A stretch of 58,165 bases of DNA, the filler included, from Basidiobolus ranarum (lineage: Eukaryota), in the NCBI GenBank assembly GCA_040143965.1. It is 3 parts of 3 records of this genome, joined end to end, with 100 filler letters (N's around TTAATTAATTAA, not from the genome) between each part and the next. Parts side by side here need not be neighbours in the genome. Positions count along the whole stretch, not along the records: positions 38,894 to 58,165 come from JASJQH010007130.1; 2 more parts are not named here. One strand, 5' to 3'. Each line of letters starts with the position of its first letter. The first letter of the stretch is position 1. Positions 19,374 through 57,696 of this stretch are shown here, one piece after another. The position numbers were made by a program, and so were the translations under genes. The notes under the pieces were generated by a model. It did no database searches and was not told the DNA's origin. It worked only from the letters and a program-made list of their open reading frames with translations.

Positions 19374-19473
19374 NNNNNNNNNNNNNNNNNNNNNNNNNNN
19401 NNNNNNNNNNNNNNNNNTTAATTAATTAANNNNNNNNNNNNNNNNNNNNNNNNNNNNNNNNNNNNNNNNNNNN
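19374..19473. other. Artificial contig spacer N44-TTAATTAATTAA-N44
   Basis: 100-nt block with a linker giving stops in all six frames; identical block at 38794. Confidence 0.98.
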
Positions 19474-38793: not shown

Positions 38794-38893
38794 NNNNNNN
38801 NNNNNNNNNNNNNNNNNNNNNNNNNNNNNNNNNNNNNTTAATTAATTAANNNNNNNNNNNNNNNNNNNNNNNNNNNNNNNNNNNNNNNNNNNN
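38794..38893. other. Artificial contig spacer N44-TTAATTAATTAA-N44
   Basis: Same 100-nt linker as at 19374. Confidence 0.98.
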
Positions 38894-44094: not shown

Positions 44095-44208
44095 TGTTGA
44101 AAATGACATAGCCTAAGCATCTATAATGTTATATAGCTAGCTGAGTTTCACTATGCTATTACCTAATATATGTTGAAATTAGCATTGTGTAAACACTTAT
44201 AGAGTCAT
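44095..44208 (+). mobile_element. Two truncated/diverged LTR 5' ends (starting 44095 and 44171) related to the 320-bp LTR family
   Basis: TGTTGAAATTAGCATTGTGTAAACACTTATAGAGTCAT at 44171 resembles the LTR start at 44590; weaker match TGTTGAAAATGACATAGCCTAAGCATCTATA at 44095. Confidence 0.6.
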
Positions 44209-45880: not shown

Positions 45881-46936
45881 TTACAGTAAGAATGCACTAA
45901 GTGAAAGTAAGGAAATAATTAGCAAGGCTTGTTGAATAGCATTGATATTCGACTCTGAAGTTACTGGTAATGCAGCGATGGAAATTGATGGGGTAGAGGC
46001 TGCAGTCGTAGTAGCCGAGATATTGAGAGTACCACTAGGAATGGTGCTAGCAATAGTAGCATTTCCCTGATACGGTGACAGATTAATGCACTCATGGGCC
46101 AGAACAAAGGTGAAATTATTTTGTAACAGCAGTGCTTCTATGGATGGTACCTCCTTTACTGTGTCAATATATATATCGTGTTGTAGGGACACAAATCCTG
46201 GATCATTGTGAGCGTTTAGTGAAGTACCATTAGCCAACGCTGAACGAAAAGAATCTAATATTAGACTTGGACTTTCTTTCTTGGCAATGATATCCCAATC
46301 TAGAGTATCCATATTCCACAGCAGATTACGATAGCCCATGGCCCTGAATATGGCTTTCACGCGATCATCAGCCTCTCCATATGGAGGCCGAATGAATGCT
46401 GGCTTTTCACCTGTAATATTAACGATGGCATCTTCGGTAGCTCGTACTTCAGCAACGATTTGATCGTTGGTAAGAGACATTAAATGTGGATGTGACCATG
46501 AATGCGAGGCAATTTGATGGCCTTCATTGAAAGCTCTCTTTACAGCATCTGGGAACTGAACCACTTGAGAACCAATCATTAGGAATGTGGCTTTTACTTT
46601 GGCTGACGCTAGAATATCTAACAATTGCATAGTATAGTTTGATGGTCCATCATCAAAAGATAATGCCCACTTTCCAGCGGTGCACCCATAAACATCATCG
46701 GGTAGAGCACAATTACCACAGCTTTCCCAACACTTGTCACAGTCAGTAGGGCCACAAGGAGAATTAGCGCAGGTACCCGAGCCTACTTTTTTGGGACTAA
46801 TGTTAGGCACTTTGGATAAATCATATTGCTTTGTCCATTGAGGATTAATGGTAGCCAACGTGCCAGATGCCGCCTCTTGGGACTGAGCAAGGTCAGCGAA
46901 GATTGTAAGACTGAGTGATAAGAAGGAAACTCTCAT
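45881..46936 (-). CDS. Chitin deacetylase (CE4/NodB), secreted, probably GPI-anchored
   Basis: Signal peptide; LSFDDGP, HSWSHP, RPPYG, WNMDTLDW, LQHD; Ser/Thr linker and hydrophobic C-terminus. Confidence 0.95.
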   Translation of the reverse strand: MRVSFLSLSLTIFADLAQSQEAASGTLATINPQWTKQYDLSKVPNISPKKVGSGTCANSPCGPTDCDKCWESCGNCALPDDVYGCTAGKWALSFDDGPSNYTMQLLDILASAKVKATFLMIGSQVVQFPDAVKRAFNEGHQIASHSWSHPHLMSLTNDQIVAEVRATEDAIVNITGEKPAFIRPPYGEADDRVKAIFRAMGYRNLLWNMDTLDWDIIAKKESPSLILDSFRSALANGTSLNAHNDPGFVSLQHDIYIDTVKEVPSIEALLLQNNFTFVLAHECINLSPYQGNATIASTIPSGTLNISATTTAASTPSISIAALPVTSESNINAIQQALLIISLLSLSAFLL

Positions 46937-48354
46937 ATTCTATGATGAATGGACTATGTTTTACTGTGATGCACGTAAGATGTAGAGGATTTATGTGTAA
47001 GAGAACCGATACTGTGAAGTGGAACTCAAATTGATGATTTTTGGATTCGGCTCCATCCTCTTTTATTTGAGGTTGTTAAGGAGATTCGTTTCTTCTGAAA
47101 TTGCTAGATTCATGAATTTCGCGCAAGTTATGCATTGCTTGCATTCGCGTAGCTTCTTCCTAACTCTCTTTTCTTGGAGGTTGTAGTCGGCTTTTTCATA
47201 TTCCAGGAATCCTCCAATGAGAGAACTGATATAGGTGGTTGTATTGGTTTACACGATATTACTATTAAACATGTAATTACCAAGGCATCCACTAAGGATA
47301 CTGAAACCTACTGGCTATGTCAGAGCATGTCAACTCCTCGCTTCCAAATATAGTATATTCAAGTTAAGTGGCGATCAAGCGAAATGTTTAACAATCTATC
47401 ACTCATCTTCATCAATTCCAATTTTCCATAACAGACACTGAGTGCGAAGCCCACTGGGTAATTCGTATGAATCTACAAGTGAGTTACGCCTTTCCATTCA
47501 TGTGGATGGCAGGTATTCTATGAAGGAAGGGTTTAACTCTGGCCCTGCTAGTGAGACTCTATAAGGAAGGGGTAAATAAAAATGTAAGATATGTTCAAAA
47601 GAACAATCAAAAGTCTGAGATTCTTAGTATCGTATTGGGGTTCATTCTGTTCCTTAACTTTAAGCTAATTGCAATCTCCTAGGATCAGTTAGCCACGCAT
47701 ATATCATTCTTTAGATTCGGGAAGGGTTTAAGCGGACTTGCAAAGTCCTTTTTCCGTAAGTATTGCTATGTATTCGCGAATTTAAGTGCCGTTTAAGACA
47801 TCACTAAAACCAGTTCATTAAGCGATAGTGAGAGTTTTTTCATTCTGCTTTCAGAAAACAATACAAATGTATATTTACACCGCGTAGTTTAAGGTTAATA
47901 TCGTAATAGATGATCAGTCCTCCTAGAGATTGTTTACGTGGTTTAAGTCAAGACACTCAAATTTGGGTTTGAGAAATGTAGAAATAAGGACAGATGAGTA
48001 TCTCTAAACATCAACACTGAAGTAGGATGAGCGGCATATGATCTGGGCTCTGCTTTGCAAAATTGAATCCTTTTGATAGATAAAGTGGAACGGCCGCAAT
48101 CCTACTTTGACATTTGGCTTTTGTATTGATTGAAAAGTAGTGTTGATCAAGAGCCTCAGTAAGTTTTACTGTCATTTATTTTGGTTCAAAAGGATAGATG
48201 GTAATATTTATGATACTTGATTTGATATAGCCTTGTGTATGAGATTGAGCATCAATGGAAAGCATTCATGGAGCTTTTCATTGAGGTAGAGTAACAAAGA
48301 AATAATGAAAATGATGTACGTGAGTGTTGGCATGTTAATGCATGATTCAATGAT

Positions 48355-49455
48355 TCAAATAAACGTGAGAGATGTGTATAGAGTAGCCAAGAGTAAAAAT
48401 CCCAGAGAAACCGGATTGTTTGACCCTCCGGATAATTCATTAGCTGGGGATATAGCTACTAGATTAGCATACTTTACGATGGAAGTGGCATTTACAGTTG
48501 AAATGGTAGTAGATGTACTTGTGGTAGAGGTGGCCGTAGAGTCAGCATTCACTGGTTTTGAGTTAACCGTAGTTTGACTAGAGCTTTGATACATTGGGAG
48601 GTTGTTGCACTCATTTGCGAGAACAAAATGAAAATTACTCTGCAACAAGAGTTTCTCTACATTTGGTGTCTGTTTAACAGTGTCGATGTAGATATCGTGT
48701 TGCAGGGAGATAAATCCTGGATCATCGTGTGCGTTTAGATCAGTTCCTTTAGCCAGAGCCTGCTTGAAGGATTCAAGGATCAGGCTGGGATTTTCCTTTT
48801 TATCAGCTATATCCCAGTCTAACGTGTCCATATTCCATAGTAAAGTGTGATAGCCCATTGCTTTAAAAATGGCTTTGACTCGATTGTCAGCTTCTCCGTA
48901 TGGAGGACGAATAAAAGCCGGTTTGACACCGGTAATGTTAACTATCACATCTTCAGTGGCTCGTACTTCGGCCACAATCTGATCGTTTGTGAGGGACATC
49001 AAGTGAGGATGAGACCATGAGTGAGATGCAATCAGATGGCCTTCATCGTAAGCTCTCTTGACCACATCTGGAAACTGAACAATGTTCGATCCGATCATCA
49101 AAAATGTAGCTTTAACTTTGGCTGCAGCAAGGATATCAAGTAATTGTGTAGTATATTGAGAGGGACCATCATCAAATGTCAAAGCCCACTCTCCTGCTTG
49201 GCATCCGTAAATATCTTCAGGCAAAGCACAATTTCCACAGCTTTCCCAGCATTTTTCGCAATCATCTGGACCACATTGTGAATTTTTGCAGGTACCCGAA
49301 CCAACCGGTTTAGGTGCAATATCCGGAACTGATGATAAGTCATATTGCTTTGACCAACTTGGATCAGAATGAGCCAGAGCGGTAGTCCCAGCCTCTTGAG
49401 CCAATGTTATTGAAGTAAAGGCCAAGATAGAAAACCATGCAATCTGTGACTTCAT
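48355..49455 (-). CDS. Chitin deacetylase (CE4/NodB), tandem paralog, probably GPI-anchored
   Basis: LTFDDGP, HSWSHP, RPPYG, DTLDW, LQHD; same architecture as its neighbour. Confidence 0.95.
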   Translation of the reverse strand: MKSQIAWFSILAFTSITLAQEAGTTALAHSDPSWSKQYDLSSVPDIAPKPVGSGTCKNSQCGPDDCEKCWESCGNCALPEDIYGCQAGEWALTFDDGPSQYTTQLLDILAAAKVKATFLMIGSNIVQFPDVVKRAYDEGHLIASHSWSHPHLMSLTNDQIVAEVRATEDVIVNITGVKPAFIRPPYGEADNRVKAIFKAMGYHTLLWNMDTLDWDIADKKENPSLILESFKQALAKGTDLNAHDDPGFISLQHDIYIDTVKQTPNVEKLLLQSNFHFVLANECNNLPMYQSSSQTTVNSKPVNADSTATSTTSTSTTISTVNATSIVKYANLVAISPANELSGGSNNPVSLGFLLLATLYTSLTFI

Positions 49456-51398
49456 ATTTTGTATCTGAGTTTGGAGGCTTTGATATGAATTCTAGCATAT
49501 CTGGATTCCCCTTTATATATACCTTCTGCTACGAGCATCTCTACCATAATGTGGGCTTATACTGGTGTAAACTAATAGGCTAGGCTTTGGTGGTCCCTGG
49601 TAACCCAAGTTGCGCCCGTTATCACTTGAATTAGGAGCGATGTCATAACCTATCTCCTGCTACATGTAGTTTAACTAGGATTCAGATTTATTTGGGTATG
49701 TTAATTTTTGCCATCGAGTATAGTTGTATCAGGGAGGTCTGCAATATCTCTATAGAATCAGAAAGTGTAAACATTAGGCTAATAAGACCAAGTTTTGATA
49801 CTTCTCTTGATTCTATCATCTTGCTATTTGAGCGCTCTGGATAGGCTGTATTCTAATTGGAATATTGGTTTCAGGGGTACCTTGAGTATATATATTTACT
49901 ACCATCGACTCCATTATTGTGTGATTGGCGCTAAAAGATCCCAATTTCCCAGGGTATTCCAACAGTACTAGTTAGAGCAACACAACATCCAAAATACAAC
50001 ATAAACAAAGCAATCTAGTTCAACATCCTCAGGTTCAAACAACAGATCGATTGGCTTTTACTACAAATGAGATTCAATTATGGGGGTGTACCTTTAGATT
50101 AGGCTTAGTCCGTACGAATTACCATAATTACAATACAGTAATGCGCACAACTTGGTTTGATTCAAATCTGTAGCCAGGTTAGAATATAATATTGCCAACC
50201 GTTGTAGTCAGTATTTGGTGATACTGCATAAAACGGTTCAAATCAGAAGAACAAGATACTGCATGACGTACTCTTATCTTCAAGGTAGTAAAGATCACCC
50301 ATATACAACTTTCGATATGGCTACTATAGTCAACTCCAAATTGAGCAGTATTCGGTCTATAACTTCGTTCACATCACACTCGACCAGCTATACTTGTCGT
50401 TAGGAAATGGGCCATCAGGCAATTGAAGTGCATGATATCTTGTGAGAATCTGATTTAAGAGAGATGACTGCCATGAACAATGAGAAATTTGTCATGTGTA
50501 ATCCATGTAAGTTGTGGTTAAAGAGCTTTTCCACCAATCAAGAGATTGGAATTTTTCTCAAACTGCATGAATTCATGATGTTCCCAAGTACTCGCGAAAC
50601 CAAGTATTACAAGGAGTGTAACGTGCCTGAGCTCCATAATAATTCGATTAATTTCAATCTGTGACCATTTATGTATTCCAAAACAACTACCGATTTTCCA
50701 ATGGGGTAACCATCAAGGGTAACAATCACAGGACCTGTGGCTCGAATAAAATGGCTGCATCTGAATATCAGGACTGATGTGTCAGCCAAGAGTAAAATAG
50801 GACACGTAAGAGTTCGCACGGATCTCAGACATGACTTGATCAAAAAGTAGAGACTTGTACCTGTTGATCTGTTGATGCTTTACTGAACCACCCTCAAGTT
50901 CATGCGAGTTGAAGAGAGCCACATGCGATATGAACTCTTCAACAGCAACCTTGTAGGGTGGCTTAGCAGGTGGTATGTTGGGGATTCTAGTGGTAATGAC
51001 ACCTACTTTTTTTGTTCAAAATAAAGGGACATCGAATATGTGTGGGAGCAGGCGTGCATTCCATTTACACCAAATCAATCCAATATATTCATTTCATGTG
51101 GTGAACTTTTCTGATCCAAAACCTGGCCTATTCTGATGCTATGTTCTTACATACTTGTCTGAACACCAGTATAAGGCAGGCTCTTTTAGCTTTTCGTAAT
51201 CGAATCACGGGACACACCAGGTTCCATGATCTATACATCAATTATGTGGTTATCAGTGGTGTACCCATTGCATTTAGTTTAAAAGTATGACCTCGCCCTG
51301 TAGATAAATCCAACTCTCTTTACTTTTTTTACTATCTTTGTAGTTGGACAGTAGCTGTGAATACTTACTCAGATATATTTTCCTTTTTTTGCATTCAA

Positions 51399-53194
51399 AT
51401 GTCTGGAAGTGAGAGTACAAACAACCAAATCTCTGTTGCTAGTAGTCGTCTCGAAAACCTGAATAATACTTTAGGAGCTAATGTGGGAAGAGATGCAACA
51501 CCTAATACAGTCAGCAACGGTATGTTTATATATACATTTATGGTAACCCCTATCTTCTTTTTCTGAACCTTTCCTGCCTCTTTGTAGTGATTCCTTGGAA
51601 AAATCAACAAGACATTAACAAAACACAGCTAAACCCCGTCTACTTTCTTCAGCGCAGTTCAAATGTATTTCCAAACAAGATCGCAGTAAAGCTAGATAAC
51701 CTAACTTACACGTATACCGACTTACTCCACAGAGTGCACAACCTTGCTTACGCCTTACGCAGCGAGGGGATTCAAGCAGGAGATAGAGTAGCCTACCTAT
51801 CTCCAAACGTTCCTGCCTTATTTGAAGCTCATTATGGCGTGCCTTGTTTGAGAGCGATTTTGGTAGCGATCAATTATCGTTTGAAGTCTAGTGAGATTGA
51901 ATATATTTTAGAGCATTCTGGAAGCAAGCTGTTACTTGTCGATTGCGATTCTTACTCTTTAGTATCTCATTTGAAAGATAAACTGAAGATAATCCAGGTT
52001 AATAGTAGTGGCCGTAGTGATGACCCTTACGAACAATTCTTAGAAAAAGGTCGTTCTTTAAGTCGTGGCTGGGAGGAGTTGAATTTACTCGGCGATGAAG
52101 ATGATACTATCAGTATCTGTTACACCAGTGGTACTACCGGTCGTCCTAAGGGTGTGATGTTAACTTATCGTGGGGTTTATATCAGCTCGCTAGGCAACTC
52201 GCTGGAAGCCGAGTTGAACTCCGAGTCAGTGATGATGTGGACCTTGCCACTATTCCACTGTAATGGATGGACCTTTCCTTGGGCCATGACTGCAGTTGGC
52301 GGCACCAATATTATGATTAGAAAGATGGATTACGAGTATATCTGGAAGGTGTTGGTGAATGATAAAGTAACTCATTATAATGGGGCGCCTACCGTTCAAA
52401 TCTCAATTGTAAATCACCCCTCTGCACATAAACTACCGAAACCCGTTAAAGTCACCGTAGCTGGATCTCCACCTTCGCCAACTCTTATTGAGAATATGAA
52501 ACGCTTAAATTTAATACCTGTTCACACTTACGGATTAACTGAAACATATGGACCCTCACTCGTCTCCCGTTGGAACACAGAGTGGGAAGTTCTACCTGAG
52601 CACGAACAAGCCAAAGTATTAGCTCGCCAAGGACATAGTTATTGTGTCTCTGAAGAAACGCGAGTGGTAAATTCCAAGATGGAGGATGTAGCATTTGATG
52701 GTAAAGCACTAGGAGAGGTAGTGATGCGAGGGACTATGGTCATGAAAGGATACTTCAATGATCCAGAGTCCACTGCAGAGGCGTTTAAGGGAGGCTGGTT
52801 CCATTCAGGAGATATTGCGGTACGTCACCCTGATGGTTACATTCAGCTGAGGGATCGTAAGAAAGACATCATCATTAGTGGAGGGGAGAATATTTCCACT
52901 ATCGAAGTCGAGCAAATTGTTAACGAGCATCCGGCAGTACTTGAAGTGGCCGTGGTTGCTATACCTGATGAACAATGGGGAGAAAGACCAAAAGCATTCA
53001 TTCGAGTTCGAGATGGGGTTCAAGTGACCGAGGAAGAAATCATTGCATTCTGTAAAAAGTCTATGGCCGGCTATAAATGCCCCACTAAGGTAGAGGTGGT
53101 CCAAGATTTCCCAAAAACTAGCACTGGCAAGATTCAAAAGTTTGTTCTACGTGCCCAAGAATGGGAACACCAAGGCCCAGATAGAATCAAATAA
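51399..53194 (+). CDS. Acyl-CoA synthetase / acyl-activating enzyme (AMP-binding); 2 exons
   Basis: Exon 51399-51519, intron 51520-51587; LNPVYFLQRS, YTSGTTGRPKGV, WTLPLFHCNGW, TYGLTETYGP, GWFHSGD, DRKKDIIISGGENIS, PKTSTGKIQK. Confidence 0.95.
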
Positions 53195-53855
53195 ACCATC
53201 ATACCATTTACTATTGACTGCGCCTATCGCATTGTTAAGTTATAGTAACGAATACCCAAACCGGATGAACGTAAGTCGTGATGGCGCCACCCATACATGT
53301 CAATGACGTTGGATCGCTGTTTCATATCAAACAATAGATAACATACAGAGACACTCGGTCCAATTGTATGGTGATTGTGTAACCGTTAGCCCTACATAGC
53401 CTGAACATAGGAATTCCCGGGCTGAGTGAGAGAATCCATTTCGTAATAGCTATATATTGACGTATGTTAGAAAAGTAACACCAAGTTGTATGTTGACTCC
53501 TTAATTTAGACAACAATTACCTCTCTAAGGTTAATCAAGTCTTAGATACAATGAAGCTGGGAAATATTGGTCAATTTGGAAATTTAAATGGTGGTTTTAA
53601 AAAAAGTATTGGTAAAAAACTGAAAATGGTTAGTCAGATGTATTTTAGAAGTTGTCGCTTTCCCCTAATAAATAGAGAAACTTATATTGAAAGTTATCTT
53701 ACTTTTGAAGAGGTAAAAGAATAAATGTGCCTTCGTGGACATAAGTCTTCCGTGACTGTTGCTACATGGACAGAATATTAAGGTAGTTTACTGACAACTT
53801 TATCACCTCTTCATCTTTCTGCTTACATTCTCTCTGTATTCTGTATTTTACTTAC

Positions 53856-55564
53856 ATGACTAAAGAAAAGATAAGTTCTATATTACAGTCTATCTATACT
53901 CAGAAGAATGCTAAATATGAGGGTGGGTTCTTATTTTCTCAATTGAATTACTTGTGCTATTTCTGAACTAATGTTATCAAAATAAGGTATAGATTTAGTA
54001 TTCAAAGATTGTGGTGAAAAAGTGTTAAAGTATTTGGGAGCCTGTTGGAAGTGGTTTGGAGAATTAGAGGAATTGGTGGTTTTCACTTATTGATTTATTG
54101 AGTATTCAGTTGACATTTATAGTTTTGTCAAGATGTAAACAAACTAACATGTAGAATGTGTTAAGGAAGGTCCCAGGAACATGTGTGCAAAGTTTGGGGC
54201 TTCTTTGAAAAATCTATATATCTGAGAACTTCTAAGTAAATTCCAATTGAGAATAATGGATAATATCTTAGTGAATTATAAGATAACTAAGTACTAAGCT
54301 ATATATGACTATATAGGTGTTTAGGCAATGTTAATTTCAACAAAAAGGTCATTACTACAAAACTTTTCCACCTGCACCAAGCACAGGTCTTCATCTTCAA
54401 CGCTCTATAAGCTTCTAAAACATATAAAAGTAACTACATTAAATTTCTGATCAAATCAATGAACACATATTGTTCATGCAACTCTTAGTTGGCTCGAAAA
54501 GAAAAAGTATGAATGAATTAGAAAAGTCAAACAAGAAGAAGTTAAAGAAGGCTGCAAGGACAAACAGCTCGCATACTAGTGATGACTCAAGTACATCTAC
54601 TGAAGTGGAATACAAAAGCTGCCAAGGTTTAGGCCACTCAAATGCAAGATCTTATCTTTGTCCTAATAAGAACATCTCTAAAGAAGAACAAATAACGTTG
54701 CTGATTGGTGACTTTACATCAGTAACTAGAAAGATCAAGTTACAATCAATTCTGCGGCCAGAGTTTAAAGATACCTTGATATCAACATTCACAAAAGTAT
54801 CAGGCCAAGTCAGAAATATCATGCTTAGGTCTCAATTGTTCATTAACTATTATTTTATCAAAAACCCATCTTTGCCAATAAGCAAAAAGGTTTTTACTCA
54901 AAACTTTTAGTACAGTGTGAGTCGGTTAATAGTAGGCAAAAGGATTACAAACATGAAAGCAGTACTAGAGGACTTGCTGGGAAGGCTTCAGCAGAGAGCA
55001 CGATGTAAAGTACACATCTCCCATCCATACAGGGCACAGTCAATGCCTATCCCCAGCATGCATTGAGATATCTATGCAAACCATATTGTAGAACTCTATG
55101 AAAAGAGTGTGTTGAATTTTTTTCAACGAAAGATGAAAGAAATACTTCCTGATGGTATAAGTATAGCATACCACTTTAATAGCAGCATCATTTTTTTTGT
55201 AAAACTGCCTAAACCTCATATACAACCATGTCATGTAGATGGAAGCCAGAGCCTTTCAAGTATAATAATCGTCTCTAAAAGACTTTTGGTAGTATATGTT
55301 GATGAGTTTCGAACGTCAAAGGTAAAACCAAGCATAGTGGGCTTTTATTGTCGTAAGACAACTAACATTTGTGAATAGGTATGTCATTGTTGCAAACAAG
55401 CAGACATGACCTCTGCCTTCATCGGTCTTCATAGTGTCCTGGCTTGCCAAAGCTGTGGGATGTTATGGAATCGAGATGTTAATGCTGCTGAAAACATCCA
55501 TAATATCTCTCATGAGATACTCTCTGGAAAAGTTCGCCCCTCTCCTTTCTGTCGTTCGCGATAG
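53856..55564 (+). pseudogene. Fanzor (Fanzor1-like, TnpB-related RuvC nuclease) pseudogene with introns
   Basis: C-terminus LLVVYVDEFRTSK|intron 55322-55378|VCHCCK..LHSVLACQSCGMLWNRDVNAAENI..RPSPF = RuvC-II Glu, Zn ribbon, RuvC-III Asp. N-terminal zinc-knuckle-like motifs. In-frame stop at 54908-54910, frameshifts, LTR insertion, no RuvC-I. Confidence 0.88.
54023..54342 (-). mobile_element. Solo LTR (320 bp) with 5-bp TSD AAAAG, inserted in the Fanzor coding sequence
   Basis: Reverse complement of 44590-44909 with about 8 differences by eye; AAAAG at 54018-54022 and 54343-54347. Confidence 0.9.
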
Positions 55565-55778
55565 ACTTAATCGCTGTCTCATACACAGTTTCCTTTTGGC
55601 TTCGGCCTAAGGATTTAGATTTTTACATGTTAATGTCCCTGCATTATTTTAAACGCTCAATATACGAAATCAATCATTTATTATTTTTTAACCAATATTT
55701 TTTTAGGTAAGCCTCAAATAATTTTTTCAAAATCACTATTTAAATTTCCAAATTAACCAATATTTCCCAGCTTCACTG
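55565..55778 (+). ncRNA. Candidate Fanzor omegaRNA scaffold region (boundaries uncertain)
   Basis: Lies between the Fanzor stop and the right end; contains hairpin TCCTT-TT-GGC-TTCG-GCC-T-AAGGA (55591-55613) with a C(UUCG)G tetraloop. Confidence 0.5.
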
Positions 55779-56789
55779 TATTAAGCCTTGAATATAGAAC
55801 TCATCTTTTCCGATTGCCATTTATCCAACCAATCCTAAAATAGGTTCAATGCCAATGTCAAACATTTGATTGGCTTGAAATATCAAGTGTCTGGAATATG
55901 AAATCAGTCTTAATCATTCCTTAATTATTAGAAATAGTCAGTGTAATAGTGGCATTTACCTCCAGAAGATACTCAAGCAACAGCCTCAATGACTGCTCAT
56001 ATTATTTCTGGGTCATTATGTTGAAATGATGACTAATATGCCGATAGACCGTCACACTGCATTATGAATGAATGGACCAAAACGTGGATAATATAAGCAA
56101 ACTACCCTTTCATGAATCGCTATGGTAGATTGAATTCAAATATGTTTAATTAAATGTATACTGGTAGAGTACTTGCAGTGTAAAGTGTACCAAAGCTAGA
56201 GCTAATTTAACTCGAAACATCTTGCATGGCAAAAATGTAAATGTAATGAGGGCACCACTAAGTGAGTTACCTTTGTTCAAATATTACATGAACTTGGAGG
56301 TATCCTATGGTGAGTGATTTCTGCTAGTTTGGAATATCAGGTGGCGGTTACATGGACAATATATGAGGGCGGATAAAGAGACTGAGGTATGTACAGGTGT
56401 CAAGAACCATTGAAACGCTTTCGGTATGTTTATATTTTGTCGAGAACTCTTTTACGAAATCGAAGTAACCGTAACAGATATACAGAAAAGATATATTCAG
56501 TAAACACCGCGAGAAATATTGCGAGAGGGAAAACCAAGACGGCGTAGAAGAGTCAGAATCCATAGAATCGGATGGTCGAGAGAACGCCATAAACTATATC
56601 AAATTACTTCTTACTCAGGAGTGGGCCGGCACCACCATAGCATGTTACGGAAATCAAAGTAAAATTAAGTATAGAACAAATTGAGATGTAAAGGAAGGCT
56701 CTAGAGAGGGAAAAGGCAAAATAGATATTACAAAGATACTAAAACACGAAAATACAGCTACATTTTGCATCTCTTGAGGTAAAAAACGT

Positions 56790-57696
56790 CTACAATGGCC
56801 ATACACCACGTCTTGACTCGGCTCTCCTCACTGTCACCATAAAATCTTGATCGCCGATCTCGACTTTTTGCTCGTATACCGAATCATATTTACTGGATTT
56901 CCAAGAATCCATTTTCAGTCCGTGAATTTGAATGCGAACAGATCGAATCTTGCCACTGTAATGAGGACTTTTGCCGGTCATCTTGTTTTTACCGGAAATC
57001 GAGACGTAGTCATGATGTTCATGATGGCTCCTCCTGTGATGATCTTCAGATAGAACTTGATGGACTTCATTCAGGAGCTCGACGTTCCAGAATTCATACT
57101 CCTCAGTGGACACATGAAGGTGGTATTTAATACAGCCAAGAAACTCCAACTCTAGATCATTCACTTGCGATAGCTCTAAATTAGTGTAGCGAGCCCAATC
57201 CATATTCAGAGGACTTTTTTCTTGATGGTATTTCGAGGCAGCTATCAAAGCACCAATAAATGTATTTCTCGCAAAATACAAATGATCATCATGGTTGCTA
57301 CTCATCGACGCAGAATAAGAATCGAATCCGTAATTGTCACCATCATCAAATAGGGGTGAGGTCAAAGCTAGCTCTTCTAAGCAGTAACCACCGTGGGGAT
57401 CGTATTGTTGACCTAGCATACTACCTCGGATAGTTCCACGTAGTTTGTACAAATAGTACAGAGATAGTATTACAGTAGAATGATACACGCGTGAGGTCTT
57501 CAGTGTCTCTCTGATAAACCCACGGAAGACTAGACGTTTCGCACGAGATATTGAGCTCAGAGGATGCCAAATTCTTTCAATTACATACTCAACAGCTTCT
57601 ATAAAAAGTTGAGTTAACAATCGATAAAGTGCATGCATTCATAACAACTAGAAACTAACCAACAAGAGATTCCAGCCCTCCGCCAGTATAATGCAT
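56790..57696 (-). CDS. Pho85-type (Pcl/Pho80 family) cyclin; 2 exons
   Basis: Exon 57696-57660 plus intron 57659-57599 gives MHYTGGGLESLVEAVEYVIERIW..FIRETLKTSR..ILSLYYLYKL..FIGALIAASKYHQE..WARYTNLELSQVNDLELEFLGCIKYHLHV. Confidence 0.88.

Follow-up and report, generated by a model that had tools for sequence, protein, structure and literature searches.

The 58,165-bp stretch of Basidiobolus ranarum DNA analyzed here (assembly GCA_040143965.1; hereafter the window, on whose scale all positions are given) contains, in the part taken from JASJQH010007130.1, a 2,230-bp element that is bounded by terminal inverted repeats (TIRs) and carries the remains of a gene for Fanzor1, a eukaryotic RNA-guided nuclease. 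By direct reading, the element extends from the C at 53549 (CAATGAAGCTGGG...) to the G at 55778 (...CCCAGCTTCACTG). A TA dinucleotide, not assigned to a strand, stands on either side of it, at 53547-53548 on the left and at 55779-55780 on the right, and the two are presumed to be the halves of a TA target-site duplication. An inverted-repeat search placed the left TIR at 53549-53610 on the + strand, where it starts CAATGAAGCTGGGAAAT with a CAATG tip, and the right TIR at 55717-55778 on the - strand, where the reverse complement starts CAGTGAAGCTGGGAAAT with a CAGTG tip (CACTG ends at 55778). The computed arms, 53546-53610 and 55717-55781, are 65 nt long and 91% complementary. In the 58,165 bp of the window, a 37-nt core of the TIR occurs exactly twice, once at each end of the element and on opposite strands, and it was absent from 100 dinucleotide-preserving shuffles. 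A preliminary description of this DNA had given the same element coordinates, 53549..55778, together with CA(A/G)TG TIRs and TA flanks, and all three proved exact.

The element holds a single degenerate gene on the + strand, at 54509-55564. Exon 1 (54509-55321) begins with an ATG that aligns with the start of the relative P0002 and ends in the RuvC-II motif VDEFRTSK. By direct reading, it is followed by a 57-nt GT..AG intron (GTAAAA...AATAG, 55322-55378) and by exon 2 (55379-55564), which contains a zinc ribbon of the form CxxC-x17-CxxC and the RuvC-III motif NRDVNAAEN, all on the + strand. The coding part of exon 2 (55379-55561) reads VCHCCKQ...CQSCGMLWNRDVNAAENI...RP and is closed by a TAG at 55562-55564, so that the spliced C-terminal peptide proposed earlier is indeed present. 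In Pfam, the exon-2 peptide matches PF07282 (Cas12f1-like TNB / OrfB_Zn_ribbon) with 28.8 bits against a gathering score of 26.3. PF07282 was the only Pfam family detected in the degenerate gene, and no DDE/D transposase was detected within the element. Yoon et al. (2023, PMC10711439) give the Fanzor active site as the regular expression E-x6-CxxC-x(12,18)-CxxC-x(4,8)-D. The spliced peptide, EFRTSKVCHCC-x17-CQSC-GMLWNR-D, satisfies this strict expression, whereas the unspliced reading fails it, the E-x6-CxxC spacing being obtained in the spliced form only, which speaks for the intron as well as for the assignment to the family.

The window copy is a pseudogene, the remnant of a Fanzor1 member, and it encodes no active nuclease. 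By tblastn, its matches to the 690-aa relative P0003 cover residues 66-249 and 609-688, and the approximately 360 central residues (P0003 250-608), which include the RuvC-I Asp of the DPG motif, are gone. There is no DPG motif, and hence no RuvC-I Asp, in the copy, and the central parts of all five full-length relatives found nothing in the element better than E 0.56. Going by the secondary structure in the P0003 model, most of the RuvC core would be missing as well, together with the second half of the helical REC region. The junction region of the internal deletion lies at 55148-55279 on the + strand, where 132 nt align to no relative. Upstream of it, a TAG at 54908-54910 takes the place of the Trp of the conserved QNFWYS, and exon 1 contains two frameshifts, at about 54975-54978 and about 55073-55076. 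Between these, window 54978-55073 matches P0002 residues 156-187 (WEGF...GHSQCLSPACIEIS) only when read in a frame shifted by one base (score 97); past about 55076 the gene is back in its main frame. An in-frame TGA at 55064 was considered as a second nonsense codon and rejected, as it sits within the frame-shifted stretch. In addition, the first Cys of an N-terminal CCHC zinc knuckle (window 54611-54661) is replaced by Tyr (TAC). With the TAG, the two frameshifts and the ~360-aa deletion, no open reading frame for the full protein is left. The stop at 54908, the frameshifts and the deletion of RuvC-I had all been read correctly in the preliminary description; the locus itself, with these three kinds of lesion, cannot be an active nuclease. 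Six relatives used as tblastn queries matched the window at 54614-55567 only, and no further Fanzor pieces were found in it.

To place the gene among known proteins, we used phmmer with P0001, the read-through protein of the window gene, against 1.84 billion cluster representatives. This gave 225 matches at E<=1e-3, 53 at E<=1e-10 and one at E<=1e-30. The best relative, P0002 (246 aa, 42% identity, E 1e-43), covers the N-terminal part only. Approximately the first 210 residues of the window protein match the family at E 1e-43 to 1e-25, and the named members are about 520-1,180 aa long. Longer relatives match in two stretches, one N-terminal and one C-terminal, as seen for P0003 (690 aa, E 2.5e-25) and P0007 (744 aa). 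Many short matches come from contigs of 1-4 kb, from which we infer open reading frame (ORF) calls that stop at an intron or at the contig end. The named clusters (8 of the 10 looked up) are all from Mucorales, namely Mucor flavus, Mucor lusitanicus, Mycotypha africana, Cunninghamella blakesleeana, Hesseltinella vesiculosa, Absidia cylindrospora and Helicostylum pulchrum; the Mucor lusitanicus cluster has 13 members, three of which are 759-aa proteins of strain CBS 277.49. With P0003 as the query, 11 proteins were recovered, again all from Mucorales, and six Mucor flavus proteins were 78-100% identical to it. Judged by sequence, this Mucor flavus set is the signature of a multi-copy mobile family. 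Relatives of P0003 in four other genera are 31-38% identical and that of Mucor mucedo is 24% identical; P0173 of Pilobolus umbonatus is 79% identical to P0003, a Mucor flavus protein, over 41% of its length, a closeness that might be due to contamination or to the element having been transferred horizontally. A search for related DNA loci by a pattern from a single protein returned 194 pattern matches, none of which was confirmed by tblastn.

The family to which the window gene belongs is Fanzor1. A family profile built from seven relatives and the window copy matched, among PDB chains, SpuFz1 (8gkh, E 1.6e-18), GtFz1 (9cer, E 1.9e-10), Parasitella PpFz1 (9cf0, E 1e-9) and TnpB (9nzp, E 2.2e-7), and TnpB, Fanzor2 and Cas12f chains were matched through the C-terminus only. 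An AlphaFold model of P0003, made from a 36-row alignment (predicted local distance difference test 77.9, predicted template modeling score 0.71), matched SpuFz1 9cez in Foldseek with E 2.3e-17 and template modeling (TM) scores of 0.60/0.69 over 648 columns. The seven top Foldseek matches are all Fanzor1 chains, and this fold evidence applies to the relative P0003, not to the window copy itself. Both the DPG motif of RuvC-I and the C-terminal signature are present in 12 of the 13 longer relatives. At the other end of the protein, within the N-terminal 10-125 residues, P0002, P0003, P0158, P0011, P0079, P0004 and P0152 share a CxxC-x4-H-x7-C knuckle followed by a conserved TRK motif. This knuckle was not recognized by Pfam at E<=0.01, and nothing in the solved Fanzor1 chains aligns with it, since the profile alignments to them begin only after it. 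Taken with the PF07282 score, the Fanzor signature and the Mucorales homologs, the profile and model matches to Fanzor1 confirm the TnpB/Fanzor membership proposed for this gene.

Elements of this type are already known. Bao & Jurka (2013, PMC3627910, Additional file 1) listed Fanzor1 elements of Mucorales and chytrids that are bounded by TIRs and flanked by TA, and Mariner/Tc1 elements also appear among the Fanzor1 carriers described by Jiang et al. (2023, PMC10530073) and Yoon et al. (2023, PMC10711439). The TIR and TA frame that had been put forward as a Fanzor1 carrier is real and matches published elements, in print since 2013, to which the window copy adds one more decayed member. All five catalogued elements considered here are associated with TA (PMC3627910). 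Two of them lack a transposase: SPu-1 of Spizellomyces punctatus (2,149 bp, 33-bp TIR, 633-aa Fanzor) and ROr-3 of Rhizopus oryzae (2,862 bp, 133-bp TIR, 720-aa Fanzor in 2 exons). The other three encode a Mariner transposase: ROr-1 (5,190 bp, 90-bp TIR, 928-aa Fanzor in 3 exons) and ROr-2 (4,073 bp, 46-bp TIR, 690-aa Fanzor in 2 exons), both of Rhizopus oryzae, and MCi-1 of Mucor circinelloides (4,036 bp, 20-bp TIR, 686-aa Fanzor in 2 exons). ROr-1 and ROr-3 start with CAGTG (PMC3627910), as does the right TIR of the window element read inward.

Among the nearest counterparts of the window element is SPu-1, the element of SpuFz1 (PMC3627910; PMC10432273; 8gkh). Like the window element, it is about 2 kb long and free of a transposase, has TIRs and TA flanks, and carries one Fanzor1 gene near its right end, and SpuFz1 also heads the matches of the family both by profile (E 1.6e-18) and by fold. 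Unlike the window copy, which is broken and lacks its center, SPu-1 is intact, with a single-exon gene of 633 aa and 25 copies, and SpuFz1 shares only about 16-17% identity with the modeled relative P0003, the knuckle having no aligned counterpart in the solved chains. The Rhizopus and Mucor elements ROr-1, ROr-2, ROr-3 and MCi-1 resemble the situation here in belonging to the order of the family's relatives and in having TA beside their TIRs, which for these elements is listed as a duplication. Their TIRs measure 20-133 bp, and their Fanzor1 genes have two or three exons and code for 686-928 aa. They differ in that ROr-1, ROr-2 and MCi-1 encode a Mariner transposase, of which there is none in the window element, and in that their Fanzor proteins belong to another lineage than the family of the window gene. 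None of ten motifs of the window subfamily occurs in the three supplementary files of PMC3627910, nor do the exact TIR words of the window element, so the 2013 catalogue seems to lack this protein lineage; the Fanzor lists of the 2023 surveys may include these Mucor proteins.

A third comparison is with PpFz1 of Parasitella parasitica, also of Mucorales (9cf0/9cf1), reported as a biochemically active Fanzor1 with a 5′-ATN target-adjacent motif (PMC11423790). The family profile can be aligned with it over nearly its full length (positions 88-704 with chain residues 528-1257, E 1e-9). PpFz1 is larger, however, with a RuvC insertion (FRI) domain that binds cyclophilin (PMC11423790), and its fold match to the P0003 model, with TM 0.55/0.53, is weaker than that of SpuFz1. 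Bacterial TnpB of the IS200/IS605 and IS607 groups shares with the window gene the C-terminal zinc ribbon and the RuvC-III RD motif (PF07282; 9nzp, E 2.2e-7), whereas the window gene is eukaryotic, has an intron and has its RuvC-II Glu relocated, and the frame of the element is TIR and TA rather than the TnpA-type ends of IS200/IS605.

In the remainder of the element, the 960 bp 5′ of the ATG are non-coding, and contain a 342-bp repeat (54019-54360, no strand assigned) that is 96% identical to window 44913-44573 on the opposite strand. By eye, the repeat has imperfect inverted ends of ~24 nt (GGTGRAAAAGT...), with which it spans about 54009-54378. It looks like a small nested repeat from outside the Fanzor family, and is possibly a miniature inverted-repeat transposable element. 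The copy at 44.6 kb is seemingly truncated at one end, and an extra 38-bp match to the repeat, at 87%, lies at 44171-44208. At the other end of the element, the gene stops 214 bp short of the right end, and between the stop codon and the right TIR lies a 3′ untranslated stretch on the + strand (55565-55716). This is the expected place of the scaffold of a Fanzor guide RNA (omegaRNA), which is described as lying at the gene 3′ end or the right end of the transposon (PMC10432273).

On either side of the element there are ORFs, one of them AMP-binding (acyl-CoA-synthetase-like) and ending at 53194, the other, with a weak likeness to cyclin, at 56790-57638. The window, with a GC content of 38%, looks fungal in its gene content, which also includes a Nic96/Nup93 gene, an RPE65-type oxygenase gene and two polysaccharide-deacetylase genes. 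The latter are adjoining polysaccharide (chitin) deacetylase-like ORFs on the - strand, at 45881-46939 and 48355-49491 (PF01522, E 2e-37 and 2e-38), apparently a tandem duplication. A 27-nt inverted repeat at 85%, with one arm within the element (53865-53891) and the other just past its right end (55784-55810), is probably due to chance. Two pairs of 44-N blocks, with 12 bases between the blocks of each pair, lie at 19374-19473 and 38794-38893 as masked or gap stretches.

Taken together, these features very probably describe a copy of a Fanzor1-carrying cut-and-paste transposon of Tc1/mariner type, one that is non-autonomous and has been altered by mutation and by an internal deletion. Its parent would have been about 3.3-3.6 kb long and would have encoded a Fanzor1 RNA-guided nuclease of ~690-760 aa, of the Mucorales lineage. 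Such a protein would combine a WED/REC part and a split RuvC with the TNB zinc ribbon and, N-terminally, the CxxC-x4-H-x7-C knuckle; its RuvC site would be made up of the Asp of DPG, the Asp of RD and a Glu relocated to six residues ahead of the zinc ribbon. Lacking a transposase of its own, the parent would have depended in trans on a mariner-type DDE transposase that recognizes CAGTG... TIRs and inserts at TA. This copy has lost about 1.1 kb of coding sequence, perhaps when gap repair following an excision was aborted, which is how deletion derivatives usually arise, and would have acquired the nonsense codon, the two frameshifts and the lost zinc ligand after the deletion. Its remaining capacity would be, at most, mobilization by a matching transposase.

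Several results weigh against this interpretation. A single copy was examined, from which we infer the TA duplication, the existence of a full-length parent and the pairing of these TIRs with the ORF. For the read-through protein P0001, the PF07282 score is marginal, at 26.4 bits against 26.3. A PDB search with the single sequence gave weak matches, confined to the C-terminus (Cas12m, E 0.031; LaTranC, E 0.09-0.17), and no Fanzor chain was among them. One of the 13 longer relatives, P0011, has neither the DPG motif nor the C-terminal signature. The nearest library protein is only 42% identical, a word-indexed protein search with the window protein gave a single match among 1,269 candidates, and no close intact sibling was found in the protein libraries searched, from which the host proteome may be absent. 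In the 5′ 972 bp of the element (53549-54520), none of the six frames matched a Pfam family at E<=1, which gives no sign of a transposase remnant, so that the superfamily assignment is drawn from the TA, the TIRs and the CAGTG tip alone. As for a guide RNA, Rfam had no match in 53300-56000 at E<=1, and the fold of the 239-nt 3′ end (55540-55778) is unexceptional, with a z-score of -0.54 and 59 of 200 shuffles folding as well.

The missing transposase bears on the possibility that the ends come from a TA-targeting superfamily distinct from Tc1/mariner, or that the flanking TA is part of the repeat instead of a duplication, the computed inverted repeat extending 3 nt past the CA..TG tips. We give this little credence, the least of the alternatives considered, since a TA duplication together with CAGTG-tipped TIRs is the pattern of the published Mariner-class Fanzor1 elements of Rhizopus. 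ROr-1 starts CAGTGCGGCTGGTAAAT, and, compared by eye, it agrees with the right TIR of the window element at 17 of its first 23 bases, a likeness to be taken as a lead and not as a test. It is likewise very unlikely that the locus is a chimera, in which a short non-autonomous TA/TIR element took up, or inserted around, two unrelated Fanzor pseudogene fragments, and no full-length element with these TIRs ever existed. In its favor, no other copy in the window or the contig collections ties the TIRs to the ORF (a 27-nt TIR pattern had no match in any of the viral, prokaryotic-genome and metagenome contig collections), the 5′ 960 bp are non-coding and hold the unrelated 342-bp repeat, and Bao & Jurka (PMC3627910) describe Fanzor elements as often chimeric. 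The two pieces, however, share one strand and follow one another collinearly, as they do in the full-length protein (P0003 66-249 before 609-688), the start ATG aligns with the start of a relative, and a gene end 214 bp from the right end is the layout of published Fanzor1 elements.

The deleted, transposase-dependent Fanzor1 carrier that we favor might still be more than a relic if its 3′ end continued to make omegaRNA for intact Fanzor1 copies in trans, so that the derivative was kept as a functional RNA locus with a dead protein. The copy still has the right TIR, the 3′ untranslated stretch and the last 240 bp of the gene, and for SpuFz1 the legend of Fig. 3 in PMC10432273 names canonical and ‘ghost’ omegaRNAs. 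We regard such a role as unlikely, in view of the lack of a structural signal and of an Rfam match in the 239-nt 3′ end, and of any intact sibling nuclease of the family known within 42% identity. A broader proposal would have the relic mark an uncharacterized, Mucorales-restricted Fanzor1 lineage, with an N-terminal CCHC knuckle and a short zinc-ribbon spacing, closer to chytrid SpuFz1 than to the 2013 Rhizopus and Mucor Fanzors. This lineage would ride on transposase-less TA/TIR elements and would have been recently active in some species, which is how it looks because the six Mucor flavus proteins are 78-100% identical to one another, while the window derivative was kept as a guide-RNA-only hitchhiker served in trans. 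As a whole, this proposal is speculative, and we hold it to be improbable, if a shade less so than the retained guide-RNA locus taken by itself.

For an understanding of Fanzor biology, the window locus matters little, as its class was described in 2013 and characterized biochemically in 2023-2024, and the copy itself yields no nuclease. Its modest value is as a pointer to intact members of the lineage, 690-760 aa long, in Mucor flavus and M. lusitanicus, where they are annotated as ‘Cas12f1-like TNB domain-containing’ or hypothetical proteins. It is these intact Mucor relatives, and not the window locus, that would be candidates for a compact fungal RNA-guided nuclease.

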